DNA of 64,000 bases from a virus (IMGVR_UViG_3300027418_000009:2217-66216), one strand, 5' to 3'. Positions 22,045-39,690 are shown, counted from the first letter of the stretch. Numbers and translations: made by a program. Notes: generated by a model not told the origin, from the letters alone.

Positions 22045-22048
22045 TCAC

Positions 22049-22076
22049 TAGTCCTGAGTATGACTAAAACTGCTCA
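22049..22076 (+). ncRNA. 3' pseudoknot element, copy 1
   Basis: tagtc-c-tgagta-t-gacta-aaac-tgctca just after the Hsp20 stop. Confidence 0.65.
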
Positions 22077-22078
22077 CT

Positions 22079-22126
22079 ATTCATCTAAAGTTAACTTTTA
22101 GTTTACCAATTATAACAAAAATTTAC
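22079..22126 (+). promoter_or_regulatory. candidate PHO-box direct repeats upstream of pstS
   Basis: ATTCAT/GTTAAC/GTTTAC/TATAAC/ATTTAC at 11,11,10,10-nt spacing before a TATACT -10. Confidence 0.45.
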
Positions 22127-22150
22127 ATTCAGATCAGATATACTATAAGT

Positions 22151-23197
22151 ATGAAATTTAAATTCATTGCTTTACCAATAGCATTAGCCATATTTGCTAA
22201 TGCTTTTTTTATTACTCCTTCACATGCTGATAACCTTCAAGGTGCTGGATCCACATTTGCTGCTAACTTTATAGACAGATGCAGGGTCGAATTTATGAAA
22301 TCAACAGGAGATTCTGTTGTATATGGAGCATCTGGCTCAGGTGCTGGAAAGAATATGTTTACAAATGGAATAACAGACTTTGCTATGTCAGATGTTCCTT
22401 ATTCAGGATCAGAACAAAAACCATCAAAAGAGTTCACCTATGTACCATTAGTTGCAGGGCCAATTGGAATTATATACAAACTTGATGAATATAAGATTAC
22501 TATTAAGATGAGCAGAGATACACTTGCTAAAGTTTTTGCGGGACAAATAACAATGTGGAACGATCCACAAATACTAAAAGAAAACATGATAGGAGCAAGA
22601 CTACCTAAGATACCAGCAACAAAGATTAGAGTTGTATACCGTGTTGATGGTTCTGGAACTTCAGAAGTTTTTACTTCATATTTAAATGCAGTTGCTCCAG
22701 CAATCTGGACAAAGCCAGGCAACAAAAACTTTGGTACTGCATTCCCTGGAGACATATCTAGGCAGTATATGAACAGTGCTTCTGGATCACATGGAATTGC
22801 AATGGTACAAGGAACAACAAATGGATCTATTGGATATAACGAGATATCATATGCAAGAGGATTAAAAACAGTCTCTGTTGAGAATGAGGCTGGAAGGTTT
22901 ATGCAGCCAACAGTAGGCGCAGCCTCAGTATTCCTTGGAGACTTTGTTCCAGATAAAAGCGGGGTAGTTAAGATTAACTATAAGAACCCTAATAAACTAT
23001 CTTATAACATATCTACTTTTACATATGGAATAGCATATAAAGAGAAAAACTCAAAGAATGATTCAGTTAAAAAGTTCTTTAACTTCATGCTTGATACCTG
23101 TGGCAAGAAGGCTGAGGACTTGGGATACTCCCCAATCAGGAGCGCTATGCTTAAGTTCTCAAAGGCAAGAGTAGCAGAAATAAGTTCAAAACCGTAG
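22151..23197 (+). CDS. pstS: phosphate ABC transporter substrate-binding protein
   Basis: GAGSTF, GSGAG, DFAMSD, RVDGSGTS, GSIGY. Confidence 0.92.
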   Translation: MKFKFIALPIALAIFANAFFITPSHADNLQGAGSTFAANFIDRCRVEFMKSTGDSVVYGASGSGAGKNMFTNGITDFAMSDVPYSGSEQKPSKEFTYVPLVAGPIGIIYKLDEYKITIKMSRDTLAKVFAGQITMWNDPQILKENMIGARLPKIPATKIRVVYRVDGSGTSEVFTSYLNAVAPAIWTKPGNKNFGTAFPGDISRQYMNSASGSHGIAMVQGTTNGSIGYNEISYARGLKTVSVENEAGRFMQPTVGAASVFLGDFVPDKSGVVKINYKNPNKLSYNISTFTYGIAYKEKNSKNDSVKKFFNFMLDTCGKKAEDLGYSPIRSAMLKFSKARVAEISSKP

Positions 23198-23209
23198 TAT
23201 AATAGACAC

Positions 23210-23322
23210 TATTCCGCTTAAGACTTTAAAAGGTTTTGCAACGGATGCTTCCTTGATGGAAGAGTTGGCAGGAGTTGAACCTTCGTGGCTAATAGACCTG
23301 AGCAGTCGTCTCTAAACTGCTC
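23210..23322 (+). ncRNA. candidate multi-hairpin small RNA ending in pseudoknot copy 2
   Basis: TATAAT at 23198; three hairpins, then agac-c-tgagca-gtc-gtct-ctaaac-tgctc. Confidence 0.55.
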
Positions 23323-23345
23323 TTTTCTTATGCTATAATTATTAG

Positions 23346-23972
23346 ATGATAAAAGAGGGCGACTTTGTTATGGGCATGACATCAGAAGGCATGATTCATG
23401 GCATGGTAGAGCATATTATGAGTGAAGGTGGCACCTATGGTGTTCCTGGAACAGAGTATGCAATTGAGTCAATGCCACCAGAAAACCCAGCAATGGCTGT
23501 TAGAATTTATGAAGAAGAAGACGGTACATGGGAACCAACAGCATACAGTATTGGAATGATGTACAAGGATGCTGAAGTTATTGATATAAACAATCACAGC
23601 ATGAAAGAAGAAGGTATGGATTCAGAAGTCGCAATGGCAATGTTTGATTCTCAATTGGGCAAAGCAGAAAATCCAATTATGCCAACAGAGACCTACCAAG
23701 GTAAAGAGTATGATGGTTGCGGATGCCCAACATGTAAAGAGTTAAATGTAAACTGTGAGAACTGTCCTGTTTGTCAGGCAGAAGAAATGAAGAGCGATTG
23801 CTGTTCAGATCTAAACAAGCAAGCACCTTGTTGGGATGGTTATGTACAGCGTGGAATGAAGCCAGGAGCAGACGGTAAGCCAGTTCCTAACTGTGTTCCT
23901 GCTGCAAAGGCTTTGTTTGCTGATTTTGGCAAGGACTACACAAAGGTACAAACAGAGAGACACTCACTATAA
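23346..23972 (+). CDS. hypothetical protein with Cys cluster and CWxGY..VPNCVP motif
   Basis: ORF with TGCTATAAT immediately upstream. Confidence 0.65.
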   Translation: MIKEGDFVMGMTSEGMIHGMVEHIMSEGGTYGVPGTEYAIESMPPENPAMAVRIYEEEDGTWEPTAYSIGMMYKDAEVIDINNHSMKEEGMDSEVAMAMFDSQLGKAENPIMPTETYQGKEYDGCGCPTCKELNVNCENCPVCQAEEMKSDCCSDLNKQAPCWDGYVQRGMKPGADGKPVPNCVPAAKALFADFGKDYTKVQTERHSL

Positions 23973-24102
23973 TGCCAAAGAAAAAAGCAGCAGCGTTTAA
24001 TCCAGTACAGATAAAAGATGGATGGATTGTTAGACTATATAAAGATGGTCGAATTAAGTCTAAGATCGCTCCATACGAACCAAAACATCCTAAAAAGTAG
24101 AG

Positions 24103-24175
24103 TACCCCTGGCAGGAATCGAACCTGCGACGCTTGGCTTAGAAGTCCAACGTTCTGTCCACTGAACTACAGAGGT
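24103..24175 (-). tRNA. tRNA-Arg(TCT)
   Basis: Reverse-strand cloverleaf; anticodon loop ctTCTaa. Confidence 0.9.
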
Positions 24176-24176
24176 G

Positions 24177-24253
24177 TGGTACACCAGGTAGGACTTGAAC
24201 CTACGATAGCCGAATTATGAGTTCGGTGCCTTAACCAACTTGGCTACTGGTGC
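24177..24253 (-). tRNA. tRNA with CAT anticodon (Ile2 or elongator Met), CCA encoded
   Basis: Anticodon loop ctCATaa; lacks the initiator GGG/CCC anticodon stem. Confidence 0.88.
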
Positions 24254-24527
24254 TAGACCTTATCTTGCTAATAGACCAACCAAGAACCCAACCATAAACA
24301 TTGACATACCAATTACCCAGTGATAAGATTTAATTAACTGATCTTGAATAATTTGATACTTAATATTATCTGGAACAAAAACAAATTCATCATCGCCCAT
24401 GTCAATCTTATATTTACTATTCACCTTGGTTAACTCCTTTTGTCATAACTAAATAACATACTACATACCCTGCAATAAAAGCAGGAATTATAAATAAATA
24501 ACTTATCATTGATATACTCCGTTCTCA

Positions 24528-24977
24528 TTAATCACGATTGCCATCCCAGTCACCAATCTTAGTAGTAGGAATTCCATAGTTTTCCCATAACTTAATAACA
24601 CTAGGGTTATCATCTACTGCATGAAAAACATTCCAATGCTTCTTAATCTTAAGTAGAATATCTTTTTTAACTTCATAGTCTGGTCTGTTGTCATCATCAC
24701 TACGCATATATAATGCGTGATGTCCAATATCGTTCTTGGCAAGCCAATAAGATGTTAGTCCACGCCAAACTTCTTTTCGTGAGGTAACAATAATAATATG
24801 CATCTGATCAAAGAATGCCTCATTAAGCATTTGGACTACTTCAAAATTTGGCAGGGCATCTATAGAAGCCTCATGAAAAGCCTCATAGTCCCTATTAGAG
24901 CCACGAACATGGTGGATGTATGGATCTACATTGGCTAGCGTTCCATCTACATCGAATATTACTGCTAAGGGTTTCAC
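24528..24977 (-). CDS. HAD phosphatase, PseT (polynucleotide kinase) phosphatase-like
   Basis: FDVDGTL, VTSR, LYMR...RPDYEVK, VDDNP. Confidence 0.8.
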   Translation of the reverse strand: MKPLAVIFDVDGTLANVDPYIHHVRGSNRDYEAFHEASIDALPNFEVVQMLNEAFFDQMHIIIVTSRKEVWRGLTSYWLAKNDIGHHALYMRSDDDNRPDYEVKKDILLKIKKHWNVFHAVDDNPSVIKLWENYGIPTTKIGDWDGNRD

Positions 24978-25131
24978 TCGTGCTCCTTCATATGTTTAGA
25001 TAAACTTTCATTAGCCATGATTCCCCATCTTAGTATCCATTCTTTTTTGCATACTGGACAAGTTAAAGACCTGTTGTGTTTTGTTTGATCCATAGTTCTA
25101 TTCTACTCCTAAGAAGTTTGAAAGTCAAACG

Positions 25132-25202
25132 CTTCCAGACATAGACTCGAACTATGATTCACGGCTTCAAAGGCCGTTGTCCTGCCATTGGACGATCTGG
25201 AA
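25132..25202 (-). tRNA. tRNA-Gln(TTG)
   Basis: Reverse-strand cloverleaf; anticodon loop ctTTGaa. Confidence 0.88.
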
Positions 25203-25206
25203 TTAG

Positions 25207-25278
25207 TAGCCCTACAGAGAATTGAACTCTGCCCACCAAGATGAAAGCCTGGTATCCTAACCACTAGACGATAGGGCC
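25207..25278 (-). tRNA. tRNA-Glu(TTC)
   Basis: Reverse-strand cloverleaf; anticodon loop ctTTCat. Confidence 0.88.
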
Positions 25279-25279
25279 G

Positions 25280-25353
25280 TGGAGCGAGTGACCAGAATCG
25301 AACTGGCACAATCAACTTGGAAGGATGATGCACTACCATTATGCAACACTCGC
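25280..25353 (-). tRNA. tRNA-Gly(TCC), CCA encoded
   Basis: Acceptor gcgagtg/cactcgc; anticodon loop ctTCCaa. Confidence 0.88.
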
Positions 25354-25526
25354 TTGTTTATTCAGTATAACAGATTACTTGTTCTTATGTCTTTTACAAA
25401 CAGGATATCTAGAAGCATCTGCACCTCTAAGAATAGGTCCACATATTTCACATTTAAGTTTAAGTTTAAATTCATAGTTATCTATCTTATTAGACAACTC
25501 AAACATTGCTCGTACTTGTTCTTCTT

Positions 25527-25820
25527 TCATTCTTTATCCCAGTAGGCTTTCCCAAACTCATCATAGTCATCCCAACCAGCACCGTTTAAGTCTTTGCTTA
25601 ATCCTTCTATGTCAAGTAAATAATATGTTCCCCAACGCTCATAAGGCTTATTAAGGATCTTCCACATTTTTGCGTGGTACTTAAATCTAAAGCCAAGGTT
25701 ATCATCTTCATCATAATTAAATGCTTTAACTAAATGATTACCAGCGTATTCACCAAGAAAATTTCCAATCCATCGTAATGGAAGTACTTTAGTCTTTTCA
25801 ATCTTTGTTGTGTGTTTCAT
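25527..25820 (-). CDS. hypothetical protein
   Basis: ORF from MKHTTK; start uncertain. Confidence 0.5.
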   Translation of the reverse strand: MKHTTKIEKTKVLPLRWIGNFLGEYAGNHLVKAFNYDEDDNLGFRFKYHAKMWKILNKPYERWGTYYLLDIEGLSKDLNGAGWDDYDEFGKAYWDKE

Positions 25821-26006
25821 CTTTAGGCACCCACACTTTCTTTCCATCTTTCCATACAGGCCAATAGCCAAGGCTACGCCAGTCCATTTGAGTTATCTTA
25901 GGTTCTTTTGGCATAAGCACACCAAATTCTACCATCAGTCATTGTTTGATGCGTCTCCCAAAACAAAGGATCTTTTTGATGCATCTCACACTTGACGCAT
26001 TCATTT

Positions 26007-26189
26007 TTATTCAAAGTCTACCTGAGTTTCAAAATGTCTAGTCATATAGTTATCTTTACCTCTTGCTATATGTGCAGCAGCAAGACGCATACCTAATGCA
26101 TTAGTTACACCAGACTCAATTGGCAAGGCTTCAATTTCCCTTGCTATTTCTTCTCTTAATGACATTTCATCTATGCTCATGTTAGGCAA
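26007..26189 (-). CDS. hypothetical protein
   Basis: LREEIAREIE ORF. Confidence 0.5.
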   Translation of the reverse strand: MPNMSIDEMSLREEIAREIEALPIESGVTNALGMRLAAAHIARGKDNYMTRHFETQVDFE

Positions 26190-26377
26190 TCAATACTTGT
26201 AATGGTCATGTATGGTTCTTCTCGCATGGCAATTGCTCTAGCCTCTTCTTCCGTGGCAGCCATAATGTCCAAATGAAAGGATCTATCGTAGTCTAATAGT
26301 GATACTGTGTATACGTTCATATATCAATTATACACCCACCACCCCTTGAATGTCAAATATGATGATATAATAATCTT

Positions 26378-26614
26378 ATGCCAACACCACCAAATTATCA
26401 AGGCGCATACAACAACGGCGCAGATTACGCTATAGGAGATATTATTCTTGCTGATGGTAACCCATACGGTATAGCAGGAGCATATTATATTAGAAGCGGT
26501 AATCCAAACAACCCAGGGTATCCACCAGGAGACACAGGATCATGGAGCATATACAGCATGCCTAAAGGTATAGACGGCGCAGGATCAATTACTGGTTCGG
26601 GCGAAATCGCTTAA
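26378..26614 (+). CDS. small protein with carbohydrate-binding-like motif
   Basis: YAIGDII...PPG...W resembles ChtBD3/CBM5-12 modules; TGATATAAT directly upstream. Confidence 0.45.
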   Translation: MPTPPNYQGAYNNGADYAIGDIILADGNPYGIAGAYYIRSGNPNNPGYPPGDTGSWSIYSMPKGIDGAGSITGSGEIA

Positions 26615-26677
26615 TACGCTTTTAAAGTTCGGCGCAAAATAGAGGTTCTATAAACCTTCCCATGCCCTACACGGGCA

Positions 26678-26977
26678 CTATTGGTTAGTATCCATACTCT
26701 TATCCCATAGGACAAAACACTTAGTACATTGAATACCTTCTTCACGCATGTACCAAGTATGCTGACATTCTTTTTTGTTAACTGTTTTAACTTTTTTCTT
26801 CTTGGTCTTTGGGCTGCCTAATCCTTTAGCCTTCAACTGTTGCCTAAATGTACCATCTGGATCATGAACATGACATAGGCTGGCAGTTCTAAAGTTTTCT
26901 ACTTTGTTCCAACACCTTGTTCCTCTGTTGGTAGTAGCAGTGCAGTTTCTTGTTTTAATATCCACCAAGGCACTCAT
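26678..26977 (-). CDS. hypothetical Cys/His-rich protein
   Basis: C.A.T..G.RC...LCHVH; CQH..CTKC. Confidence 0.5.
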   Translation of the reverse strand: MSALVDIKTRNCTATTNRGTRCWNKVENFRTASLCHVHDPDGTFRQQLKAKGLGSPKTKKKKVKTVNKKECQHTWYMREEGIQCTKCFVLWDKSMDTNQ

Positions 26978-27167
26978 TTCTTGTATGATAAAGACGGATC
27001 TTAGTTAAAAGTTTGCGGGTATTGGCATTAATAAGTTCTCCACAAGCACCACAGTTCATATCCCATTCACCAGAGAAGAAGTCATATCTGGCACCATACT
27101 TTTGTTTAGCATATTTGGCTATGCGAAAGGCAGTAAATGGGTCTGGGATTTCCATGTTCGTAATCAT
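26955..27167 (-). CDS. hypothetical protein
   Basis: ORF with CGACG. Confidence 0.5.
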   Translation of the reverse strand: MITNMEIPDPFTAFRIAKYAKQKYGARYDFFSGEWDMNCGACGELINANTRKLLTKIRLYHTRNECLGGY

Positions 27168-27373
27168 AGTTTGGCTACAAGGTCAGCAGCCATCTTAAGA
27201 CCTTTTACAACTCCATCATGATAGTCTTGGTTCTTAATGACTTTAACCCTATCCCAAACATCATAAGACTCTTGCTTTAATCTATCTGATATTTGCATTT
27301 TTAATACCATCTCGTCTATGTCCATAGATCAAGTATATCCAATTTTGGCGGGGAAGTCAAGTATAATAGACCT

Positions 27374-27691
27374 ATGAACGAAGCCATCCTATATATACTA
27401 TACAGCCCCATACATAAGGCTGTCAAGATAGGGATATCAGATATATCAGGTAAGAGGTTTGCTAGTCATAGGACCAAGGGTTGGATATTAGTCTCATATT
27501 GGCATTTTTTCGAACGGGATAAGGCAAGAGCCATAGAATCCCTAGTAATACAAACACTAAAGAAGAAACATGGGTCATACCTACATAAGGAGGATATGCC
27601 ACAAGGGGGCTATACAGAGACATTTGATGCAAGTAAGGTTACTAAGAGAGGTTTGATCCGTATGGTCAATAAGGCTATTAAGAGTGTTTGA
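27374..27691 (+). CDS. GIY-YIG/T5orf172-like nuclease-fold protein
   Basis: LYIL...VKIGIS...R...IE...GYTETF. Confidence 0.55.
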   Translation: MNEAILYILYSPIHKAVKIGISDISGKRFASHRTKGWILVSYWHFFERDKARAIESLVIQTLKKKHGSYLHKEDMPQGGYTETFDASKVTKRGLIRMVNKAIKSV

Positions 27692-28026
27692 TACCCTGGC
27701 ATTTTGGACATTGCTTCGTAATCTCTTTTGTACCATAGGCTACTTGATACATACCCCCACAGTTAAAGCATAGGACATCTAACATGTCATATCATCATCC
27801 ATAGCACCACACAGAGTACAGGTTACTTGACCATCAAGGTCTAGTTCATATTTGCAGTCATGTGTCATTTAAAGAAGTCTATTCCTATATACCATCTAAA
27901 GAGATACAAACCAATTTCCCATTCGTGTTTGATCGGATAGCCCCAGTTATGGAGATATACTCCAAGAGAATAATTAGCGGTCATCTTGCCATAGTGGAGT
28001 TTCATATATACATCATATCATAGAAG

Positions 28027-29290
28027 TTATCCACAGGTTTAGACATAGTCTGGATGGTCTAATGGAGTAGGTGCTGTGATAAGACATTTACATTCCATAC
28101 ATTGGGCATCATCCAATAAATACCCTGCGATTTCATAGGTTTGTGGATCAAACTCTACAGTTAACCTTAAGAGTGTTGAGTGACAACAAGGACATACAGG
28201 TGTAGGGATACCTCTGATATCTATCATGGTTATCCAGCCATACGGATTTGTTGAAGATAGGCCATGTAGTTGAGAAAGATGAATAGGCCTAGCATTATGA
28301 TTAGGAAAGGTTTCATATATCCATCATATCACAGACAGGGGGAAATGTCCAATGTATCGTAATGTTTATATACCGTGGTTTTTTAAAGTTATCCACAGGC
28401 TATAGAACATATCTATTACATATGTTTGGTAGTTATCCACAGGCTAAACGATAATTTGTATACCAGGAATTAGTGGTTTAGCATAGTTATCCACAGGTTT
28501 ATCCACAGATTAATCTTACTGATAATATATTTAGACATTCTAGAAGTGGAGTGAAGTGGAGGATAGTGGAGTATGGAGCATTTTCAAGAAGGGCGTCGTA
28601 ATCTTTAACGGCCAAACCTCCTATCTACAAAACCTCCTATCCCCCTTTGCCCCTTATACCACAAACCTTTCTATTTGTCAAACCTTACAAGACATGGGCA
28701 TTATATACCATGAAACATGGTTTGTCAAGCCCAATTATTGTGCAAAACCTCATATAAAATTTGTACGAATTTGTGGATAAAATCAAATAAAATTAAATAA
28801 ATGTTTTAAATGTTTTATAAAAGAATCAAAAAGTTATTGTTTTATATATGGTGGTTTTACTATAGGGATTTGGTATCAGATGATCCTCTGTCCCCTGGGA
28901 TTTTGGGCTGGTACGGGGAAGAAAAATGCTCCTTCGTAATGTCGTGGCGAGATTGTACCACCTCCCACTGACATGCCTGGTACGGGGAAAAAATTCCGTC
29001 CTTCGTAATGTCTTCTAGTATTATTAAACTTGCCGATGGCGGGGGATAGAAAAGACTATGCAAAATACCCTAGGTATAACATCAAACAACTATACCACAG
29101 TATGGGTTGATTTGACAAATTGGGATATGTTTGATATAAGGGTTTGATATATAAGGTTTGATATGCTAGGTACGGGGAAAAGAAATGGCTCTTCGTAATA
29201 GAGGTTTGAAAAACCTAGGTTTGGGGAAAAGAATTGATCCTTCGTAATAAAGGTTTGAGAAAACCTATGACTGATATGTCTGGTTTGATA
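28027..29290. other. candidate replication origin
   Basis: Six TTATCCACA boxes, converging AAACCT/AGGTTT repeats, AT-rich core at 28780-28860, four GGGGAA-N12-TTCGTAA motifs. Confidence 0.5.
28039..28227 (-). CDS. small Zn-ribbon protein
   Basis: CPCC...CMEC. Confidence 0.55.
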   Translation of the reverse strand: MIDIRGIPTPVCPCCHSTLLRLTVEFDPQTYEIAGYLLDDAQCMECKCLITAPTPLDHPDYV

Positions 29291-29332
29291 TAATTTGTCG
29301 ATGAAATCTGGGGGGCCAGATGACTGATAAAC

Positions 29333-29644
29333 TTATTGCTCTTCTTCTATCTCTCCATTATCAACCTTGCGACCATACCCAAATGTAAGGATAGCCCCAA
29401 GTGACTGATCTTCTAGAGCGTCAACTTCTTCTTCTGTGATACTTAGTAGTTTAAAAAACATCTGAGTAGTCTCTTCAATGTATTGTTCACCAAGGTCTGT
29501 AACCTCAGACACCAAACCATTTGCGTGACAGTATGCCAAAGGCAGACCAATGTCATTGTATTCTATAAACGCAGCAAAATCTTTGTCTGCCTTAAACTCT
29601 AGCCATAGTTGTGCTAGCATCCCTGCTTTATCTGCGAACTCCAT
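29333..29644 (-). CDS. hypothetical protein
   Basis: ORF, overlaps the upstream gene. Confidence 0.6.
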   Translation of the reverse strand: MEFADKAGMLAQLWLEFKADKDFAAFIEYNDIGLPLAYCHANGLVSEVTDLGEQYIEETTQMFFKLLSITEEEVDALEDQSLGAILTFGYGRKVDNGEIEEEQ

Positions 29645-29867
29645 TGTTGGGTCCTTTCATCTCTAGCATAAGTTTATCATACTCTTCCATTGCTGTCAAA
29701 CTCAAAACCTCAAAGCGGTGGTAATTTATTAGTGGTAGATTTCTTACCATGTAATAACCTACTCTTTCTAAATCAACCGCAAAATCTTGGGTCAGGAGTT
29801 TTCCTATCTGCTCTGCTAATCTTGTTTCTTTGTTGGCGGTTGCCGTTCGTCTGATTGAATAAGCCAT
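29628..29867 (-). CDS. hypothetical protein
   Basis: SD GAGGAG. Confidence 0.6.
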   Translation of the reverse strand: MAYSIRRTATANKETRLAEQIGKLLTQDFAVDLERVGYYMVRNLPLINYHRFEVLSLTAMEEYDKLMLEMKGPNNGVRR

Positions 29868-31562: not shown

Positions 31563-31566
31563 AGTA

Positions 31567-31803: not shown

Positions 31804-31954
31804 AGTACCCTTCTGCCCATAGGCCTTGTAAGAAGTCGTGAGCAGTAACTAGATAGTTATGGATAGCAGGGTTCTCATCAGCATTGATTAACAAATCAGC
31901 CTGATAAACCCCATAGGTCATATCTGCTAAATCTCTTTGTGTATAGCCTAACAT
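31787..31954 (-). CDS. hypothetical protein
   Basis: MLGYTQ...LQGLWAEGYF. Confidence 0.5.
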   Translation of the reverse strand: MLGYTQRDLADMTYGVYQADLLINADENPAIHNYLVTAHDFLQGLWAEGYFDNVE

Positions 31955-32233
31955 TATGCCACCATTTCTGTAAGAGTTAACCAAGTTGTACAATACTTAC
32001 AATGCTCAATTTTTAGAGGGGATACAATAGAATGAGTACTATCAATGATAGCCTCAATCTTATCTAATACATCATCTAGTGTCATTAGCCTACCTCTATC
32101 CCTGCGTAGTGTGCGATAGTATTAAGAGTAGTGTGGACATGGCAGTCACAAGCCTCTCCACCCATGTTTTCTTCAAACTCTAGGTGAGAGTAATTGCTTT
32201 CATATATTTCATTAATTAGGTCGTCTATGGTGT

Positions 32234-32452
32234 TCACGCATATTCCTTTTCGTAGGCTGGGAGTGAGGTTACTACTAATTCTAACATTTCGTCAGGGTAT
32301 CTGTCAAGCACCCAATTAAGGGCCTGTCCAGCAGTCTTAAAGTCAGAGGCAGTAGTGCTCTCCCCATATCCTTGAATAGTTGCTTCCCAGCAGTCAACGC
32401 CACCAGGAGAGCAGGAGTAGTTCATTTCATATATTGCAACTTGTTGGGTCAT
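32234..32452 (-). CDS. hypothetical protein
   Basis: Leaderless position behind TTGCAT-17-TATAAT. Confidence 0.6.
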   Translation of the reverse strand: MTQQVAIYEMNYSCSPGGVDCWEATIQGYGESTTASDFKTAGQALNWVLDRYPDEMLELVVTSLPAYEKEYA

Positions 32453-32644
32453 ATATTAATTATAGCGTAGGGGTCTGACAAATGCAAGGTTTGGGGAAAA
32501 ATATTAGCCCTTCGTAAAGAAATTCCAGGAAAAATATCAGTCGTTCGTAAAGTTATTTTAGGATAAATCTCATGTGACCTAAATCACATTTCCTCGGCAA
32601 ATTTTTATTAATAAAAAATTATTACACGATCACAAAAAAAATGT

Positions 32645-32673
32645 TGAGCAGTTTTAATTCATGCTCAGGAATT
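32645..32673 (-). ncRNA. 3' pseudoknot element, copy 3
   Basis: aattc-c-tgagca-t-gaatt-aaaac-tgctca just after the DUF932 stop. Confidence 0.65.
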
Positions 32674-32679
32674 TTTTAT

Positions 32680-33696
32680 TTATGCGAGTGACATTACACC
32701 CTGTACAACTTTTAACAAACGATTTTTTTCTGCGTTAATAGCAGGGTCAAAACCACTTGCGGAAGCAAGGATAGATTCGTTAGAACCACCACGAGCAGAA
32801 CGGAACCAGTCAAGGCGTTCAGTTAGCGCATTGAAAGCACCCCACGCATTACCCGCAATCATTCCGTTAAACTCTCCTGTGTAGATGTCATTGATAACAT
32901 CAACCTTGTTTTCCCATTTCTTTACAGCACCCTTAGCGTCTTTTTCAGGCTTAGGATAAGCAGCAAGAATAATTTTGTTAAAGTCTAGCGCATTGACTTC
33001 TTTTTCAATCATAGCCTTAGCCATGATGTCAAATTCGTCCATGTACTTATTAGCCATGCCTAGAGTTTCTCTAGCAATAGCAACTTTACCACTAGCGGTC
33101 TGTGTGTGGCGAATCTTGAAAGATTGCTTGATACCATTCTTTTTCTTGATTGAACCAAGAGCAAGATTGAGAGTGTTAGCGCACACTACACGAACAGGTG
33201 TAATGCTTGCTTGAATAGCGATTGAGCCGTCATGTGATGTGTTGATGAGCAAATAAGTTTTTACCTTATCAGATACACCATTAGGGTCAAGAACAGTTTC
33301 GCGTTCTAGTGCTAGTGCGCCAAATACTACACGCCCACCCTTAATTGAGCCAGCCGTTTCCCAACGACCACCACCATCAAGAATGTTGTCACCAAATGAG
33401 AATAAATCCTCATTTTGTAAAACATGATAACGCTCACCTACTACACCTAAAATGTCAGTCTGTGTTGTATCTGTTGGGTTAGTACGCAAAACATACTGGT
33501 ATGCCTTGTCGCTTGTTAGATGTGTTGGGGTTTCTAAATCCTCAAGACGAACATTCCAATTATCAAGACTTGCTAATGAAAGCATTTCTGATGTTGTTTT
33601 TTCATCTGTGAATACAGTACCCAATCCATGCCAAGCAGGTTCTCTAAATGAAGCAAAAGAAGCCTTGCCGTTTTGTGTTTCTAGGTCATGTGCCAT
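32680..33696 (-). CDS. DUF932 family phage/plasmid protein (TIGR03299-like)
   Basis: MAHDLE...PAWHGLG, ETAGSI.GG, NTSHDGS, TPVRVVCANTL, IRHT, WGAFNALTE. Confidence 0.85.
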   Translation of the reverse strand: MAHDLETQNGKASFASFREPAWHGLGTVFTDEKTTSEMLSLASLDNWNVRLEDLETPTHLTSDKAYQYVLRTNPTDTTQTDILGVVGERYHVLQNEDLFSFGDNILDGGGRWETAGSIKGGRVVFGALALERETVLDPNGVSDKVKTYLLINTSHDGSIAIQASITPVRVVCANTLNLALGSIKKKNGIKQSFKIRHTQTASGKVAIARETLGMANKYMDEFDIMAKAMIEKEVNALDFNKIILAAYPKPEKDAKGAVKKWENKVDVINDIYTGEFNGMIAGNAWGAFNALTERLDWFRSARGGSNESILASASGFDPAINAEKNRLLKVVQGVMSLA

Positions 33697-33870
33697 GAGT
33701 TTATTTCCTTTTCTGTTGTTGTTATTATTTCAAGTATAGCAGGATAGTCTGACAAAAGCAAATCGGGATAGTTAGACATGGACAATCTGGACATTGTGAG
33801 AAAGATCACCCCATCGTAACGGCGTGTCGATTTGACATTTCGTCGGCAAAAATTTCAAGGATTTTAAAAG

Positions 33871-33901
33871 TGAGCAGTTTTGCACAGACATGCTCAGGTC
33901 C
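33871..33901 (-). ncRNA. 3' pseudoknot element, copy 4
   Basis: ggac-c-tgagca-t-gtct-gtgcaaaac-tgctca. Confidence 0.6.
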
Positions 33902-33919
33902 TTTATTAGTAGCCCCCTA

Positions 33920-34336
33920 CTAAATTTCTATTCTATCCACACTGGATGACAAATAAGAAATAGAATCATCATTATAAGAAACAGAATCAAAATCAATATC
34001 ATAGATTGCATTCTGTGCAGACTCTTCGTCTCGTGCATTAACAGTGACTGAGTATTGAACTGTAACTTCAACCTCAAACTCTTTTGTTAATTCAAAGCCA
34101 CAGATTTCTGCAATTTCATTTGCTTCGTCTTCATTGATTGTTCCTGATTCAAGTGCACTAAAAGTCCACTCTTGCATTCCTTCACGAATGCCGTTAAGTT
34201 GTGCAGCAGTATTAAAGTCACGAGTAGTAACTCTTGCAACATGCTCTTCAAGTTGCTTTATGCGTCCTTCATTTTCTACTAACCGTGACTCAAGAAATTC
34301 TCTTGTCATATAGTGGTTATCTGGTGCTTGCTCCAT
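33920..34336 (-). CDS. hypothetical protein
   Basis: Own TTGACA-18-TATAAT promoter and SD. Confidence 0.65.
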   Translation of the reverse strand: MEQAPDNHYMTREFLESRLVENEGRIKQLEEHVARVTTRDFNTAAQLNGIREGMQEWTFSALESGTINEDEANEIAEICGFELTKEFEVEVTVQYSVTVNARDEESAQNAIYDIDFDSVSYNDDSISYLSSSVDRIEI

Positions 34337-34398
34337 AAGGGGCCTCTTTCTGTTAGTTGGTTAATTTAATTATACTGGGTGCCACTGACAATTGTCAA

Positions 34399-34896
34399 TT
34401 ACCAAGATGATGAGTAATAGAATGATAACTTATCAAATTCAGGCAGAGCAAAGACTCGCTCTAACTGAGTAATAGTATTCTTTAGGTCGTTCCAATACCA
34501 TTCATCAATATCTGTTCCACCAAAGAAAAATCCTTCTTGTGGTGGCAATAGGCTTGGGTCCTTAGTTTCAAGTGCGTGTTCGCAGATAACCTTTAGTTCT
34601 GTTAGTTTATCTTGTGAAACATAGTAATCTCCGCAATTATCATTACCGCCTTGAACATTTGTGACAAACCAGTTGTGTATCTGATTAGCCTTGCGCCAGT
34701 AGGCACAGGTGACCAATACTTCTGCTCCATACATATCTGTTGCTACATCTGTGAGTTGTGTGATTTCCATTAAGTCATTAAACTTAGGATATACCGCTTC
34801 AGGTGAGTTATAAGTTAATTCATCATTAGCCTGTAGTTTGTTCCAGTTGATTTTTTCAAAGTGCTTTCTTGCACTGAGATACATATCTAATCCCAT
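34399..34896 (-). CDS. conserved phage hypothetical protein
   Basis: MGLDMYL...YWRKANQIHNWF...GFFFG...YYSSSW. Confidence 0.7.
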   Translation of the reverse strand: MGLDMYLSARKHFEKINWNKLQANDELTYNSPEAVYPKFNDLMEITQLTDVATDMYGAEVLVTCAYWRKANQIHNWFVTNVQGGNDNCGDYYVSQDKLTELKVICEHALETKDPSLLPPQEGFFFGGTDIDEWYWNDLKNTITQLERVFALPEFDKLSFYYSSSW

Positions 34897-34981
34897 TGGG
34901 GCTCCTTCTTGTTGTTTATATTAATTATACTGTGTGGGTCTGACATTTGTCAAGTGCCCTGGTGATCGTGGGGGAGTGTTG

Positions 34982-35009
34982 TGAGCAGTTTATAGTCGTA
35001 CTCAGGACT
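34982..35009 (-). ncRNA. 3' pseudoknot element, copy 5
   Basis: agtc-c-tgagta-c-gact-ataaac-tgctca. Confidence 0.65.
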
Positions 35010-35021
35010 TTCATTATCTAA

Positions 35022-35444
35022 TTATAGATACTGAGCGATTGCGTTGTAGGTTGATGTGGAAACTGTTTCCTCATCTGTCATCTTTAGCAAGCGAATTGCG
35101 TTTGTGATTTCTTTCTTTGACTCGCGGTAAGTGCTGGAGTGAATAACCTCAAAATCCTTTTCAGGTTCTGCTGGGAACTCTCCCTCTTTTGTCTTGATGT
35201 CAAAATCAACATTTAGCGTATCTGACCAAGAACGATAGTTGGTGCGTAGGTTTTCAGCCTTTGAGAAATGAGCCATAGCCCACTTTCCAATTTCTACTTT
35301 CCAAGCCTCATAAGCAAGGGTGAAGTTTGCTTCTTTTGCTGATTGTGTTGCGTAGTCTGCTTCTAGGGTAGCAAGTGCTTCCTCTAGTCCTGCGATTACT
35401 CGTACTGTTGGGATTTTTACATTTATTGCTTTTGTTCTAGCCAT
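35022..35444 (-). CDS. hypothetical protein
   Basis: Own TGTCAG-N10-TATAAT promoter. Confidence 0.65.
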   Translation of the reverse strand: MARTKAINVKIPTVRVIAGLEEALATLEADYATQSAKEANFTLAYEAWKVEIGKWAMAHFSKAENLRTNYRSWSDTLNVDFDIKTKEGEFPAEPEKDFEVIHSSTYRESKKEITNAIRLLKMTDEETVSTSTYNAIAQYL

Positions 35445-35513
35445 TGGGTTTTCTCTTTTCTTTGTTGTGGGTTAGTTTCTATTATAGCGTGGGGGTCTGA
35501 CATTTTACTGAAG

Positions 35514-35541
35514 TGAGCCTTTTTGTATCTTGCTCAGGATA
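35514..35541 (-). ncRNA. 3' pseudoknot element, copy 6
   Basis: tatc-c-tgagca-a-gata-caaaaa-ggctca. Confidence 0.55.
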
Positions 35542-35592
35542 GGTCACGCCACTTATTTATAGTGGCTGTACGCTAGCCACTTAGTAGTTAGA

Positions 35593-35757
35593 CTACTTTG
35601 CTGTCCAAGTTGTATAACGGGCTGAACCATTTACATCTAACTTCACACGCACATTTCCATTTGCTTGTGGAGTGATTTCTTGGATTGTTCCTGTGACCTT
35701 TGACTTCTGAGTTGTGTAGAGGTCGCCTACCTTGTATGTGTTTGTTGCTACTGACAT
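35593..35757 (-). CDS. small beta-rich (SH3/KOW-like) protein (not in ORF track)
   Basis: MSVATNTYKVGDLYTTQKSKVTGTIQEITPQANGNVRVKLDVNGSARYTTWTAK. Confidence 0.55.
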   Translation of the reverse strand: MSVATNTYKVGDLYTTQKSKVTGTIQEITPQANGNVRVKLDVNGSARYTTWTAK

Positions 35758-36112
35758 TGTGTTTCTCTTTTCTATTAGTTGGGCTGGATTGCCTTATGTA
35801 TTAAGTATAGCAAAAAATCTAAGAAATAACAAATCCATTTCCAAATAATCTCAAAATGTGAGACATTTTCTATGTGATTTGCGTCACTAGGTTTCCTGCG
35901 TATAATACAATTTTAGCAGAAAAATCTCAAAAATACAAATTTTGGGGAATAATGTTAGTGTGTTCTTAAACACATTTTAGGCTGAGCGTGGCGGATTTGA
36001 CAAATCAAAGATTTTGCGCCGATGATTTTTTTGCAGGGGATCTAGGTCCCACTTGCCCCTAGTATATTTGCAAGCAACATCAGTGCTAGCAACACGTACA
36101 AAAAAGTTTCCA

Positions 36113-36847
36113 TTACTTTTTAGTTGCGCTAAACACGATGTCTGCTTTATTGTAAACACAGAGTGAGCAAGATACGCATGCGGACCCAGCAGTGCTAATT
36201 AGTGGAATGGCCTTTAAGTTTTCAGGACACTTAGCACCAGGCTTACCTATCATTTCTTTCATGTCTGCCTGCCCAATAGCAAAATTCTTAGCAAGGTATG
36301 CTAGGCGAACACCAGAATTAATTTTAAGGTCAACACCAATTTTTACATTCTCACTATCAGTGCTAAAGTAAAGAGACAGGTTATCAATATCCTTAAGCAT
36401 GAGGGCAGCAGACTTCACACGAGTGTACACCCAAAATTGAATGTCAAGGTTATTAAGGATGATAGTCTTCCATGCCTCAGTGTAAGTATCATTAAAGAAA
36501 TCTCCGTCCCAGTGGATACGAAATAGCATAGGGGCGTCTTTCTTGATACAGTCTGCCTTGAAATCATTAATCATATCAGTTAGCAATGCTTCCATAGTTA
36601 ATTGATCTGCGTCTTTAAGTAAATCCCAATTGTGTAGTAGGTTAGCCTTTACACCCTTGAAGAGTTTTTCCAGTTTTCCTGCGTAGCATATGCTTTCACA
36701 AACACTAGTGGCACCAGGACACGAGAAAGCCTTTCCAGCAGGGAGACCAAAAGTATTTGCGATTGCTGCTTGTTTTCCATTTTTCGTGACAAGGTTAGCC
36801 ACCTTTCTATCATTAGAGCGTTTTAGTTTAAGTGTATTAGTAGTCAA
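36113..36847 (-). CDS. phage Gp88-like protein
   Basis: FGLPAG..CPGA..C..ICYA, FRIHWDGDF, FWVYTR, C..C.LC. Confidence 0.7.
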   Translation of the reverse strand: MTTNTLKLKRSNDRKVANLVTKNGKQAAIANTFGLPAGKAFSCPGATSVCESICYAGKLEKLFKGVKANLLHNWDLLKDADQLTMEALLTDMINDFKADCIKKDAPMLFRIHWDGDFFNDTYTEAWKTIILNNLDIQFWVYTRVKSAALMLKDIDNLSLYFSTDSENVKIGVDLKINSGVRLAYLAKNFAIGQADMKEMIGKPGAKCPENLKAIPLISTAGSACVSCSLCVYNKADIVFSATKK

Positions 36848-37480
36848 GGGAGAGACTCATTTCTAGTGCCATGTCTTCATTCGTTACTGAGTCTGCTAAT
36901 TCATTTGTCCAGCAATAATCACAGATAGGCATGAATTCATCAACCGCATTTTCTTTACATTTAGGGCAGGTTGTTGCGTAGTATTCATCTAGCAGTTCAT
37001 CATTTTCGTAGGTCATGGGCTATTCTCCTTGTTGTTTCTTTAATTGTAGCAGTTCGGACTGACATTTCCTACGATTGTAGGCTTTCTTTGAAGGCACGGC
37101 AGAGGCAGCATTAGAACGCCTTAGTTCCATAAGTCTGCGTAATTCCTCATTTGTTTTCTTCATATAGCAATACTAACACACATCTGATAAAAATGTCAAA
37201 TCCAGATCGTGTGATAAAAATCACAAAAAATTTTTCCCGCCCAGGATTGGGGGAAATAAAAATTGCCTTCTTAAAGATATTTTATAAGGGTTACCAGTGA
37301 GTAGGTCAAGGTTATCCACAGGTTATACACAGACACACCCGAACGCGCCGATGAAAAAATTGCAGTTTTTATTCTGCAATCTTTTTTTTATTTATTCTTT
37401 TTCGATTTCATCTAACAATTCCCAAAGTATTGGTTCTAGTTCTTTAGAAACTAAATCTAATTTTTCTTGTAGTGTTTTCA

Positions 37481-37675
37481 TTACTGAACCAACCCTTCGA
37501 ACCATTGAGAAAATCCACCTGTAAAGAATACCTCTTCACCTTGCGAATTAGTGAGTGTTGCGATTACTGATTCAGTTTCATCATTAACCTCAAGAATCTC
37601 TTTTACAAGATAATTTTGGTTATTGGAGATAAACAGTTTTCCAACAGTGATTTTATTGATTATTGATAGTGACAT
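37481..37675 (-). CDS. hypothetical protein
   Basis: ORF in the early gene array. Confidence 0.5.
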   Translation of the reverse strand: MSLSIINKITVGKLFISNNQNYLVKEILEVNDETESVIATLTNSQGEEVFFTGGFSQWFEGLVQ

Positions 37676-38133
37676 TAGTTTTCTACTTTCTTTAGTTCAT
37701 GATTATTATTAAGGGGGCGATTGTTATTAGAGAACATGGACTCTATAACCGCTTTATCTTTTATTGATTGAGCAATTCTTTTTTCTTGTTGCTCTTTAAG
37801 AATTCTATCAAAGGTACTCATTAGTCAAAGTATCCAAATTCTCCTATGCAAGAACCACAGATACCTGAGAATTCTTGCTCATGCTTTTCGCAATAAGCGA
37901 CTTTCTTTTTTTCATTAGTGTTAGTCATTTTTGACCTAACCTTTCTTAGTGAGAGTTTCTCACTTTCTTACTCTGTAAGTGTAGCACGAAAGGCTGACAT
38001 TTATCAAGTTACTAGGCAGTAATTCCACATAGTAAGACGCTCAAGGCGTGTGATAGTAGTCACAAGAGTTATCCACAAGAGTTATCCACAACAGTTATCC
38101 ACAGGCGCCGATGAAAATTTGTCGGCATTTTTT

Positions 38134-38376
38134 TTACTCACCTTCTTCAATAAAAACATAAAACGGAATTGTTGCGTTGTAAATAAATTTAGTAAATTCT
38201 TTTTCACCAAATTCATTTTGTGTTTCTACTTCATAGTTATCGCCTGTACCATCAGTAGAAATAGAAATGACTTCAACAATATCATTTTCAATTCTGATTA
38301 AATCACCAACCATTAACTGATCTGGTGTTAAGTTATCTGCGTGAGTTAATTCCATAGCAATCATTGTATCAGACAT
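38134..38376 (-). CDS. hypothetical protein
   Basis: LMVGDLI beta-rich ORF. Confidence 0.55.
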   Translation of the reverse strand: MSDTMIAMELTHADNLTPDQLMVGDLIRIENDIVEVISISTDGTGDNYEVETQNEFGEKEFTKFIYNATIPFYVFIEEGE

Positions 38377-38377
38377 T

Positions 38378-38671
38378 TTATTCCTCATCTTCATCTAGTG
38401 GGTCAATAAACCAAGATAGGTGGTGCTGTTCAATTATAGCCCACGCAGGTGCTTGCTTGCTACCTTTATAGGTTATCTGAAAGTCACCAACCATAGGCAT
38501 GTCAATTAAGCGGTTATAGTCCTCATCATAGGCTGCGTCAATAGCCTCAATACAAGGGGCAACCATTTCTGAGGGTACGGGTGGATAGTGATTACCTTTC
38601 AAGTGATAAAGTAATTGTGTTTCAAGGTCTAGTACCTCATCTTTTATTCCTAGTGCTGTTACTGATCCCAT
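38378..38671 (-). CDS. hypothetical protein
   Basis: HLKGNHYPPVP...HHL; SD GAGG. Confidence 0.6.
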   Translation of the reverse strand: MGSVTALGIKDEVLDLETQLLYHLKGNHYPPVPSEMVAPCIEAIDAAYDEDYNRLIDMPMVGDFQITYKGSKQAPAWAIIEQHHLSWFIDPLDEDEE

Positions 38672-38838
38672 TATTTATACCTCTACGCTTTCGTTGTTGT
38701 TAGTTAATTGCTTTATGTCCGCAACATAGACATTATCTTTATCTATTCCATACTTTAATTGGAATTGAAAGACATCTATGGCTTCATCATAGTTTTCTGC
38801 TTGGACATCTATGTAGGTTAGAAATTCAAAAGTTTCCA

Positions 38839-39060
38839 TTATTTTGATACCACCATTCCTGTTGTGTAAAAAGTTTTTGTGTGTAACTTACCTGAAGGTT
38901 CAGATAAATTAACTACCCTGTATTCTTTAGCATCTCCATAGTCAATAAAACTATTAAAGACATTTACTGCGTCAAGGGCATTAGAATAGCGTCCAACCCA
39001 AAGTGTATTGGTGTCACTATCATTGGTGCTAGTTACTGAGTATAGGTATTCATTATTCAT
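38839..39060 (-). CDS. hypothetical protein
   Basis: SD AGGAG. Confidence 0.55.
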   Translation of the reverse strand: MNNEYLYSVTSTNDSDTNTLWVGRYSNALDAVNVFNSFIDYGDAKEYRVVNLSEPSGKLHTKTFYTTGMVVSK

Positions 39061-39213
39061 TAGTTATTCTCCTTAGTGATAAATAATTGGTGTGGATTAC
39101 AATCGCAAGACTCTGTATCAAAGTCCTCACCCTGTGCCCAAAATTGCCAACCTTGCCCATAGCATTTTTCGCAATTTTCTATTTCTGTGTATAGTGTTTT
39201 CATTACTCCCATT

Positions 39214-39417
39214 TTAATTTTCTACCTTTACTGCTACTGTACGGCATACGACTTTTCCAAAATTATTAGGGCGTACTTCCACTAGATAACTTTCGCAACC
39301 CTGATACCATACGGCTTTAGGGTGTATCTCTGCTGAGATAATTTCTCCTGTAAGGGTACGGGAGCGGTATTGTGTTCCTACAAGTAGGTGTTCTATTGTA
39401 TAGACATTTGCTGACAT
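39214..39417 (-). CDS. hypothetical protein
   Basis: Own promoter and SD GAGG. Confidence 0.55.
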   Translation of the reverse strand: MSANVYTIEHLLVGTQYRSRTLTGEIISAEIHPKAVWYQGCESYLVEVRPNNFGKVVCRTVAVKVEN

Positions 39418-39661
39418 TTGCCAACCTCTTTCTTTTTGTTGTTAATTCTATCCTACCATGAGGGTCTGACATTTCTGCTAGACACGCCCAAAGTAAATAG
39501 ACTTTCTTTTTTTACTTACTATGTAAGTCTAGCCTATTAGACATAAATTATCAACCTACTAGCCAGTAAGTCCAAATGGTGAGACGCTCAAGCCATGTGA
39601 TAAATCTCACAGCGTGGCAACACGCCCGAACGCGTCGATGAAATTTTTATCGGCAAAAAAT

Positions 39662-39690
39662 TGAGCAGTTTTAAATCTTGCTCAGGATTT
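39662..39690 (-). ncRNA. 3' pseudoknot element, copy 7
   Basis: aaatc-c-tgagca-a-gattt-aaaac-tgctca. Confidence 0.65.

Follow-up and report, generated by a model that had tools for sequence, protein, structure and literature searches.

What does a short RNA fold do when it stands, each time with another sequence in its first stem, behind one gene after another? The question is raised by IMGVR_UViG_3300027418_000009:2217-66216, a 64,000-nt stretch of viral DNA (the window, by which we mean the whole stretch that was analysed), in which a preliminary description had noted seven copies of an H-type RNA pseudoknot between positions 22049 and 39690. We found all seven at the positions and on the strands given there, and each is read in the direction of its flanking open reading frames (ORFs; 7/7), as had been proposed. 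The element looks like an undescribed and widespread RNA class, and it is a structural variant new to a known kind, the cis-acting 3′-end or terminator-slot RNA elements. With a confidence that falls a little short of even, we favour the view that it is a 3′-end module, which fixes where the upstream RNA ends and shields that end.

Read on the sense strand, the element is an H-type pseudoknot of ∼28 nt that consists of the 5′ strand of stem P1, a single C (loop L1), the hexamer UGAGYA, one nucleotide (three in copy 2), the 3′ strand P1′, a variable linker that ends in AAAC (AAAA in copy 6), and UGCUCA, which pairs back to UGAGYA as stem P2. P1 spans 3 to 5 bp and is free in sequence and always paired; P2 spans 4 to 6 bp and holds only three G-C pairs and an 11-nt loop. 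Across very distant carriers 17 positions are nearly invariant, and P1 alone is free to vary. Ninety-one copies went into a covariance model, R1; three of them come from the window and match by construction. Run on the window, R1 returned exactly the seven copies (22-50 bits, E 1e-12 to 1.2e-4), the next match being at E 0.14, and the four copies outside its training set scored 22-36 bits. The core pattern TGAGYAN{1,12}TGCTCA matched six times at four places in the window, with two palindromic places counted on both strands, and shuffled sequences gave a mean of 0.25 matches (0/100 reached six). The copies, with coordinates from the start of P1 to the end of the 3′ strand of P2, are as follows.

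22049-22076, plus strand, copy 1: P1 TAGTC/GACTA, L1 C, UGAGUA, U, AAAC and UGCUCA; starts 4 nt past the TAG stop of an Hsp20 gene (21631-22044); 36.1 bits, E 9.6e-9, outside the training set
23294-23323, plus strand, copy 2: P1 AGAC/GUCU, a 3-nt junction, CUAAAC and UGCUCU; 28.2 bits
32645-32673, minus strand, copy 3: P1 AAUUC/GAAUU; behind a DUF932 gene (32680-33696) and followed by ACA and U8; 49.6 bits, in the training set
33871-33901, minus strand, copy 4: P1 GGAC/GUCU with a G.U pair, and a longer linker, GUGCAAAAC; behind ORF 33920-34336, with a small hairpin between the stop and the pseudoknot; 30.4 bits, outside the training set
34982-35009, minus strand, copy 5: P1 AGUC/GACU; behind ORF 35022-35444; a 12-of-12 sigma70-like promoter (34953 to 34924) starts 28 nt downstream; 45.1 bits, in the training set
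35514-35541, minus strand, copy 6: P1 UAUC/GAUA, with a variant 3′ side, AAAAGGCUCA (GGCUCA); 59 nt behind ORF 35593-35757 and spanned by an RNA contig; 22.1 bits, E 1.2e-4, outside the training set
39662-39690, minus strand, copy 7: P1 AAAUC/GAUUU; behind ORF 39697-39849 and followed by A and U6; 48.9 bits, in the training set

P1 had been described as different in every copy yet complementary, and this is the case in all seven (4-5 bp). The second pairing, UGAGYA with UGCUCA, is complete (6/6 bp) in five copies. That claim needs qualifying for copies 2 and 6, which form 5/6 bp (in copy 6 because of its variant 3′ side), and for the wider family, where A.C is common at pair 2. Proximity to stop codons likewise stands for six of the seven copies, in which the preceding ORF stop has its first base 13, 15, 26, 20, 59 and 15 nt ahead of the U of UGA, and fails for copy 2, which follows no ORF of ≥20 aa.

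Covariation among homologs, which had been suggested as a check, is strong in P1. The inner three pairs are paired in 91/91 canonical copies with four, three, and two pair types, and in the canonical-length alignment the fourth pair forms in 70/91 and the fifth in 30/91. The P1 covariation score is 0.363. Column shuffles score 0.112 ± 0.009, with 0/500 as high, and slid 3′ partners score 0.04-0.08. In P2, a strand-specific U.G occurs at pair 5 in 24/91 copies. Because the ascertaining patterns fix P2, its variants were scanned separately in IMG/VR. At pair 3, the compensated G:C form CUGGG..UGCCC was found in at least 119 stretches (P1 of ≥3 bp in 115 of the 120 matches listed), whereas a complete scan for the non-pairing A.C form CUGAG..UGCCC gave only 27 (21 with P1 of ≥3 bp), as P2 pairing predicts. 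At pair 2, both the A:U form CUAAG..UGCUU (P1 in 116 of the 121 matches listed) and the supposedly disruptive A.C form CUAAG..UGCUC (P1 in 98 of the 120 listed) are abundant, and pairing is not supported at this position by the test.

P2 was also read in copies that none of the patterns could have selected. From 5.28 Mb of fetched DNA, copies with ≤3 mismatches to the 17 conserved letters (a threshold that penalises double changes) were collected and those that any scan pattern could select were removed, which left 87 distinct copies. In these, pair 1 is U:A in 39 only; pair 2 is G:C in 75, G.U in nine, A:U in one, and unpaired in two; pair 3 is A:U in 75, G:C in seven, G.U in three, and unpaired in two; pair 4 is G:C in 80, A:U in three, G.U in one, and unpaired in three; pair 5 is C:G in 58, U.G in 18, U:A in nine, and unpaired in two; and pair 6 is A:U in 67 and A.G in 18. 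Changed pairs at positions 2 to 5 thus mostly stay paired. Over the variant scans and these copies together, P2 pairing is supported at three inner positions and is not clean at the second pair. To judge from the same data, the pseudoknot is located in the RNA of the sense strand, since its U.G pairs would be C.A on the opposite strand and the copies are so consistently oriented. The earlier view that the repeat is an RNA structure and not a DNA operator is thus borne out by the P1 covariation, the U.G pairs in P2, and the abundance of the compensated G:C variant.

How far does the element extend beyond the window? IMG/VR was scanned with the exact pattern CTGAGYA-N(4-12)-AAACTGCTCA, P1 being left free, and at least 120 stretches were returned; P1 of ≥3 bp stands in register in 124 of the 128 distinct matches listed. 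A stricter fixed-length pattern, again with P1 left free, was run on GTDB (one genome per species) and gave at least 118 stretches from many phyla, compared with ∼9 chance matches estimated from the stated collection size. P1 of ≥3 bp is present in 114 of the 120 GTDB matches listed, whose titles include many Saccharibacteria as well as Actinomycetes, Anaerolineae, Desulfobacterota, Lactobacillaceae, Brucella, Nocardia, Bacteroidota, and others. All such large counts are to be read as minimum values; they come from scans ascertained by pattern, with related contigs among the matches. Some of the GTDB carriers are surely prophages or mis-binned phage contigs; other copies sit amid ordinary metabolic genes, and the element is not phage-specific. 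Whatever its function, its hundreds of covarying members recommend it for a new Rfam family. S-CRM01, a freshwater cyanophage in culture (L623; 2511-2545 and 2995-3030), carries one canonical copy, directly behind an unannotated tRNA-like T-arm/acceptor sequence, and one variant, CUCGGCA..UGCCCA, read by eye 4 nt before tRNA-Asp; with so few copies it was set aside as a model carrier.

In diverse bacterial metagenome-assembled genomes the element also forms part of a stand-alone micro-gene, which consists of a promoter-like box, a strong Shine-Dalgarno (SD) sequence, and an ORF of 20-21 codons (22 GTDB contigs aligned, among them L141, L142, L150, L153, L158, L163, L188, L206, L212, and L228). 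The micro-ORF has the consensus M-K/R-R-F/Y-x-x-P-R-x-A-H-C-x-E/D-G-C-x-x-x-S, or M-R-W-M-F-P-H-A-T-H-C-S-x-C-G-S..., and its stop is the UGA inside the pseudoknot loop. Synonymous variation suggests that it is genuinely coding. The neighbours of these micro-genes are unrelated housekeeping genes.

Two features of the surroundings recur, and the first is a fixed distance to the stop codon upstream. Genes were called mechanically and crudely in 177 instances. The called upstream gene shares the element's strand in 141 and has the other strand in nine; for the called downstream gene the figures are 132 and 19, and the element falls within a called gene on the same strand in four and on the opposite strand in 14; 14/177 instances stand at convergent gene junctions. 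The offset from the first base of the stop to the U of UGA was then taken for 481 of 549 unique instances, those with an upstream ORF of ≥50 aa. It is −13 in 72 cases, −14 in 64, and −15 to −17 in 83, compared with six at −12 and four from −11 to −1; in a further 12 the offset is 0, the stop being the element's own UGA. Expressed as the spacer between the stop and P1, the typical distance is 4-6 nt with an abrupt lower limit at 4 nt and a peak at 5 nt (31 cases at 4 nt, 69 at 5, and 53 at 6, with six below 4 nt, overlaps aside). No such regularity is seen towards the next start codon, the distances to which spread widely in the 177 instances (median 72 nt). The upstream stops comprise 174 UAA, 55 UAG, and 30 UGA and have no frame relation to the element's UGA. 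A module that places stops in all three frames was considered and rejected, as only 21/541 instances close all three. The upstream genes are short (median 106 aa, 256 unique), and most have no PHROG match. Recurrent families, from 148 sampled of the 256, are DUF932/phrog_1221 (11, the largest), major head proteins, ribonucleotide reductase, anti-restriction proteins, and SSB; Hsp20 is also among the annotated upstream genes.

Copy 2 shows that an ORF is not always what precedes the fold. This copy is the 3′ part of a ∼120-nt structured RNA (about 23198-23330, plus strand) in the gap that separates pstS from the next gene; the RNA is equipped with a TAGTATAAT −10 box of its own and leaves room for no ORF of ≥20 aa. 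The RNA contains three covarying hairpins, with double changes in 6/33 predicted pairs, and is conserved with compensatory changes in five other contigs (L007, L008, L049, L061, and L068). Since copy 2 closes a non-coding covarying RNA, the module is not tied to translation.

The second recurrent feature is found downstream, where the sequences that follow the element are often of kinds that make RNA 3′ ends. The survey covered the 549 unique instances, 543 of them assessable. A same-strand tRNA lies ≤30 nt downstream in 31 of 549, in 30 of those at 1-13 nt (mode 3 nt); a tRNA ≤60 nt upstream is seen in only six. A U-tract starts 0-3 nt past UGCUCA in 123/543, compared with 25 in the same test upstream, and an SD sequence with a start codon follows within 45 nt in 141/543. 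Hammerhead-like sequence stands directly behind the element in seven instances. In L135 (twice) and L187, type III hammerheads recognised by Rfam abut the element, overlapping its last 3 nt, with the cleavage site ∼5 nt past UGCUCA. These two loci (L135 7270-7620 and L187 5317-5710, both minus strand) are built as repeated units of pseudoknot, type III hammerhead, SD sequence, small ORF, pseudoknot, and hammerhead, and L135 contains two consecutive gene-pseudoknot-hammerhead units. By this arrangement the small genes would be excised from the transcript with a pseudoknot ∼5 nt from the new 3′ end. Perreault et al. (PMC3088659) describe tandem hammerheads that cut phage-like polycistronic RNAs in vitro and in vivo; the RNAs lie around genes such as ardA, and the purpose of the cutting is left open in their account. 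In five further loci with an Rfam match (L035 285-445, L221 912-1071, L154 5432-5592, L172 5051-5208, and L224 1598-1754), DUF2800 RNA (RF02960, 140-160 bits) starts at the very next base (+1) behind the pseudoknot. In the DUF2800 loci whose upstream ORF was read, the pseudoknot follows a small gene ending in ...ELYAIE(A/T)DL(D/R).

We therefore asked what these surroundings have in common. The 3′-end module is favoured because the fold stays with the upstream RNA and stands directly before makers of RNA ends. According to this proposal, the sense transcript would fold as the H-type pseudoknot; by classical pseudoknot geometry, the single-C L1 would cross the deep groove of P2 and the A-rich last loop (L3), ending in AAAC, would lie in the minor groove of P1, where we infer triple-helix contacts. 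The fold would be placed as near the stop codon as a terminating ribosome permits, with its spacer of 4-6 nt. With the stop codon in its A site, the ribosome applies its mRNA helicase at about the distance of P1, so that translation of the upstream ORF would not melt the fold. The RNA 3′ end would then be made just behind the fold by whatever the genome supplies, namely a U-tract in the manner of an intrinsic terminator, RNase P where it cuts an adjacent tRNA free at its 5′ end, a hammerhead of type III, or another endonuclease. The leftover tail of 0-13 nt would be too short for 3′-to-5′ exonucleases to engage, and the upstream message or small RNA (sRNA) would be stabilised. In the window the copies take up the terminator slot, with a stop codon before them and the next sigma70-like promoter after, and consensus terminator hairpins show no enrichment from 21.5 to 40.5 kb (15, compared with 11.9 ± 3.3 in shuffles). 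The preliminary description had offered a 3′-end stabiliser or non-canonical terminator as its first inferences, and the downstream hammerheads, tRNAs, and U-tracts together with the fixed stop spacing fit this. Its stricter statement, that the copies lie at transcript 3′ ends, is not supported: an RNA contig bridges copy 6, and elsewhere a tRNA or an SD sequence and start codon follows within a few nucleotides, so transcription often reads through.

A more specific version of the proposal, which we hold to be possible but on the unlikely side, is that the element is a cross-phylum RNA class acting as a ribosome-gauged 3′-end "cap", a pseudoknot of triple-helix type that is set exactly where the terminating ribosome takes in the RNA and is given its 3′ end by RNase P at a following tRNA, by a hammerhead, or by termination. 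The invariant 17 nt would then reflect an exonuclease-resistant fold or recognition by a universal factor, and the arrangement would be a bacterial counterpart of the MALAT1 triple helix and mascRNA. If the 3′-end module is correct, one 28-nt unit sets and protects the 3′ ends of mRNAs and sRNAs without a classical terminator in many phages, prophages, and some bacteria. It would also give a reason for the tandem hammerheads and tRNA genes found behind phage genes, which would be 3′-end makers for the upstream message, and it would provide a portable part with which transcripts could be stabilised in hosts of very different kinds, and an easy mark by which annotators could recognise where small phage genes end. 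As the spacing to the stop codon is so exact, experiments could directly address how a terminating ribosome and a fold downstream of it interact.

Several observations weigh against the 3′-end module. The RNA data are assembled contigs, which are blind to ends, and one of them (X16 record 14) runs through copy 6. None of the recognised downstream features is present in 265/543 instances, about half, and where an SD sequence and start codon follow within 45 nt transcription must continue, so that another nuclease has to be assumed for those 141. In the micro-ORF units a canonical terminator stands 20-50 nt further on, and the pseudoknot is not the terminal structure there. In P2, A.C is tolerated at pair 2 in no fewer than 98 copies of credible structure, and both terminal pairs are often unpaired in the 87 unselected copies, for which reason we would describe P2 as a core of 4 bp whose ends are optional. 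The counts come from pattern-ascertained scans with related contigs and are not independent events. A plain hairpin would also block exonucleases, and conservation of 17 nt from cyanophage-like contigs to Saccharibacteria is not explained by such a module alone. Lastly, the sharp stop-codon spacing could equally indicate a function directed at the ribosome.

The conservation keeps alive a reading in which the element is a specific ligand site or a special fold. Here the loop, the AAAC, and P2 would be recognised by a universal factor, or the fold would be an aptamer or catalytic RNA; ribosomal protein S1, RNase P/Z/E/J, PNPase, and RNA polymerase are candidates for the partner, with an effect on processing, decay, or termination. 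Seventeen near-invariant positions in distant carriers are more than stability alone needs, and the element abuts other structured RNAs (hammerheads, tRNAs, and DUF2800 RNA). As ordinary chromosomal contexts also carry it, any partner must be universal among hosts, and no partner emerged from neighbourhoods that consist of unrelated genes. There is also no riboswitch-like tie to one gene class, the largest PHROG family accounting for 11/148 sampled genes, and a hammerhead right behind the element argues against self-cleavage by the element itself. We regard this reading as unlikely.

Could the ribosome be the target instead? The element would then be a roadblock or insulator against post-termination scanning, uncouple the next cistron, or modulate termination and recycling. 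The hard lower limit of the spacer at 4 nt and its peak at 5 nt favour such a role, and the spacer resembles that used by frameshift and read-through pseudoknots. The ∼22 bacterial contigs whose conserved 20-21-codon ORF ends on the element's UGA, and the 141/543 instances with an SD sequence and start codon ≤45 nt downstream, point the same way; the micro-ORF units, with their canonical terminator, keep the idea alive. However, copy 2 and its five homologues follow no ORF, the upstream stop has no frame relation to the element's UGA, and the distance to the next start is not fixed. The mostly UAA stops speak against programmed read-through, and slippery heptamers are not enriched (22/541 at 4-9 nt upstream, compared with 14/541 at the control position), on which grounds a read-through or frameshift stimulator was rejected. 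A ribosome-directed element is, in our estimate, decidedly unlikely.

An intrinsic terminator of pseudoknot type, in which P2 stabilised by P1 releases RNA polymerase with or without a U-tract, is very unlikely. It would account for the excess of U-tracts over the control (123/543 compared with 25), for the runs behind window copies 3 (eight T) and 7 (six T), for the convergent junctions, and for the position of the window copies between stop codons and the promoters that come next. A U-tract is, however, absent from most copies. For the window this had been anticipated roughly correctly: what follows copies 2 and 4 is T-rich, and copies 1, 5, and 6 lack any such run. The RNA contig across copy 6 also counts against termination, and tRNAs at 1-13 nt or SD sequences and start codons at 10-45 nt leave no room for a promoter, so that the polymerase must read through there. 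The scan for consensus terminators did not report the seven copies.

Highly improbable, finally, is a DNA-level module, a 25-nt repeat that serves like the promoter early stem-loop elements (PeSLs) as a recombination point for shuffling gene cassettes with the RNA fold as a secondary matter: the element and a sigma70-like promoter do flank small ORFs in the window, as PeSLs are described to do in PMC4122927, and a related-strain contig joins 35513 to 34398, skipping two genes and copy 5, but covariation, U.G pairs, and strict sense orientation indicate selection on RNA, recombination in one phage lineage does not explain conservation across phyla, and the differing P1 shortens the identity that the copies share.

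Is the element already known under another name? No family could be assigned to it, as the preliminary description had also reported. At gathering scores, Rfam 15 recognises only seven tRNAs in the window, and at E ≤ 10 the interval 32600-35600, which holds four copies, returns only chance-level CRISPR-DR66 (E 3.6) and snoZ278 (E 5.4). In scans of 14 and of two carrier loci Rfam finds only tRNA, DUF2800 RNA, and Hammerhead_3, beside the element and never on it. In the literature searched, on phage pseudoknots, hammerheads, DUF2800 RNA, and PeSLs, no description of the motif was found. The phage csRNA catalogue of PMC10690425 may include it in its large list of candidates, where an entry, DNAVirus_1850, partly overlaps tRNA-Asp.

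The closest relatives in architecture are the luteovirus frameshift pseudoknots of beet western yellows virus (BWYV) and sugarcane yellow leaf virus (ScYLV), compared here by topology and not by sequence. They share the topology and size class, a short C-containing L1, an A-rich last loop beside a short stem 1, and a position a few nucleotides downstream of the A-site codon. In contrast to them, our element has a stop codon upstream instead of a slippery heptamer, with no overlapping ORF that continues, its stem 2 is 4-6 bp of fixed sequence, and it occurs in DNA phages and bacteria in many copies per genome. A −1 frameshift pseudoknot, which calls for a slippery heptamer X XXY YYZ 5-9 nt upstream and an overlapping frame downstream, was accordingly rejected. 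The preQ1-I riboswitch, the smallest known H-type riboswitch, is likewise ∼30 nt, with a hairpin loop that pairs past an A-rich tail. The present element stands behind stop codons and not in front of queuosine genes, in seven copies beside unrelated genes, its UGCUCA is not an SD sequence, and preQ1-I gave no Rfam match at E ≤ 10. The MALAT1/MEN-beta 3′ module offers a functional parallel, as there too a tertiary structure that is compact and rich in A stands immediately before the site of RNase P cleavage. In that system a triple helix is followed by a tRNA-like RNA that RNase P cuts, leaving a protected 3′ end; here real tRNA genes stand 1-13 nt behind the element in 30/549 instances. MALAT1 and MEN-beta are eukaryotic nuclear long non-coding RNAs with another fold (a U-rich element for nuclear expression and an A-tract), and for our element cleavage and protection are proposed by analogy. 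Among ribozymes, the hammerhead core is CUGANGA, from which the loop CUGAGYA differs, and assignment to a known self-cleaving class (hammerhead, pistol, twister, or hatchet) was rejected, Rfam giving no match on the element; the complete hammerheads of L135 and L187 lie behind it.

Two phage systems resemble the element in setting. ToxI is also a small pseudoknot-forming RNA in a phage-related context, and a ToxI-type decoy had been suggested at the outset. ToxI is a tandem array of about 36-nt repeats beside toxN. The suggestion did not survive: Tandem Repeats Finder detected no array at any copy between 21000 and 41000, the copies being dispersed 0.5-9 kb apart, and Pfam found no ToxN among 10 neighbouring ORFs, a set that takes in some of the small ORFs. 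PeSLs of T4-type phages, the subject of PMC2839356 and PMC4122927, are likewise repeated intergenic modules that follow small ORFs in variable regions, with a structured element just upstream of a sigma70-like promoter, an arrangement that copy 5 shares through its promoter 28 nt on. Their stems are simple, lineage-specific hairpins (GN-loop-CN, A3-4G3-loop-C3T3-4, and AGNA-loop-TCNT), and no pseudoknot and no UGAGYA/UGCUCA was found described in PMC4122927. Our element differs further in its conservation from phylum to phylum and in that a promoter is often absent behind it, the tRNAs and start codons leaving no room. As to indel boundaries, a mark of PeSLs, one related-strain contig has a boundary at copy 6.

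That contig comes from RNA library X17 and joins 35513, just behind copy 6, to 34398 through 12 other letters, so the related strain is without two genes and copy 5. On the minus strand the 12 joining letters read as a GCAA-tetraloop hairpin. The RNA data as a whole are metatranscriptome contigs that are blind to starts, ends, and strand, and in which uncovered parts carry no meaning. Six RNA runs, labelled as lake water, contain 27-48% of the sampled words of the region, and contigs from four of them were mapped onto it; DNA runs that contain it are labelled marine.

The window makes up 64 kb of a 66-kb IMG/VR record with a CheckV completeness of 44%. A label of T4-like cyanophage found no support, as the large terminase is at best 52% identical (tblastn), to large Streptomyces siphophages, and a megablast of 32000-40000 against 50,697 phage records returned no near-identical cultured phage. 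Pfam recognised HSP20, PBP_like_2, DUF932, and GP88 among the 10 neighbouring ORFs. The 140-aa ORF between copies 6 and 5 (35022-35444, minus strand) has a weak Pfam match to the anthrax lethal-factor middle domain (E 9e-4, 19.1 bits, under the curated cutoff of 25) that is probably not meaningful. Within sigma70-like promoters downstream of pseudoknot copies, the box AAATGTCAGACCC has four matches compared with 0.42 expected, and promoter-like sites with this box stand behind copies 5 and 6. The four matches are as follows.

34934-34948, minus strand, AAATGTCAGACCC box
35491-35505, minus strand, AAATGTCAGACCC box
39460-39474, minus strand, AAATGTCAGACCC box
42447-42461, minus strand, AAATGTCAGACCC box

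A second box, TTTGCCGAnGAAATGT, is found behind copies 3 and 4 and in a looser form behind copy 7. On the plus strand, the genes for Hsp20 and a PstS-like phosphate-binding protein adjoin at 21631-23197, each with its own promoter-like site.

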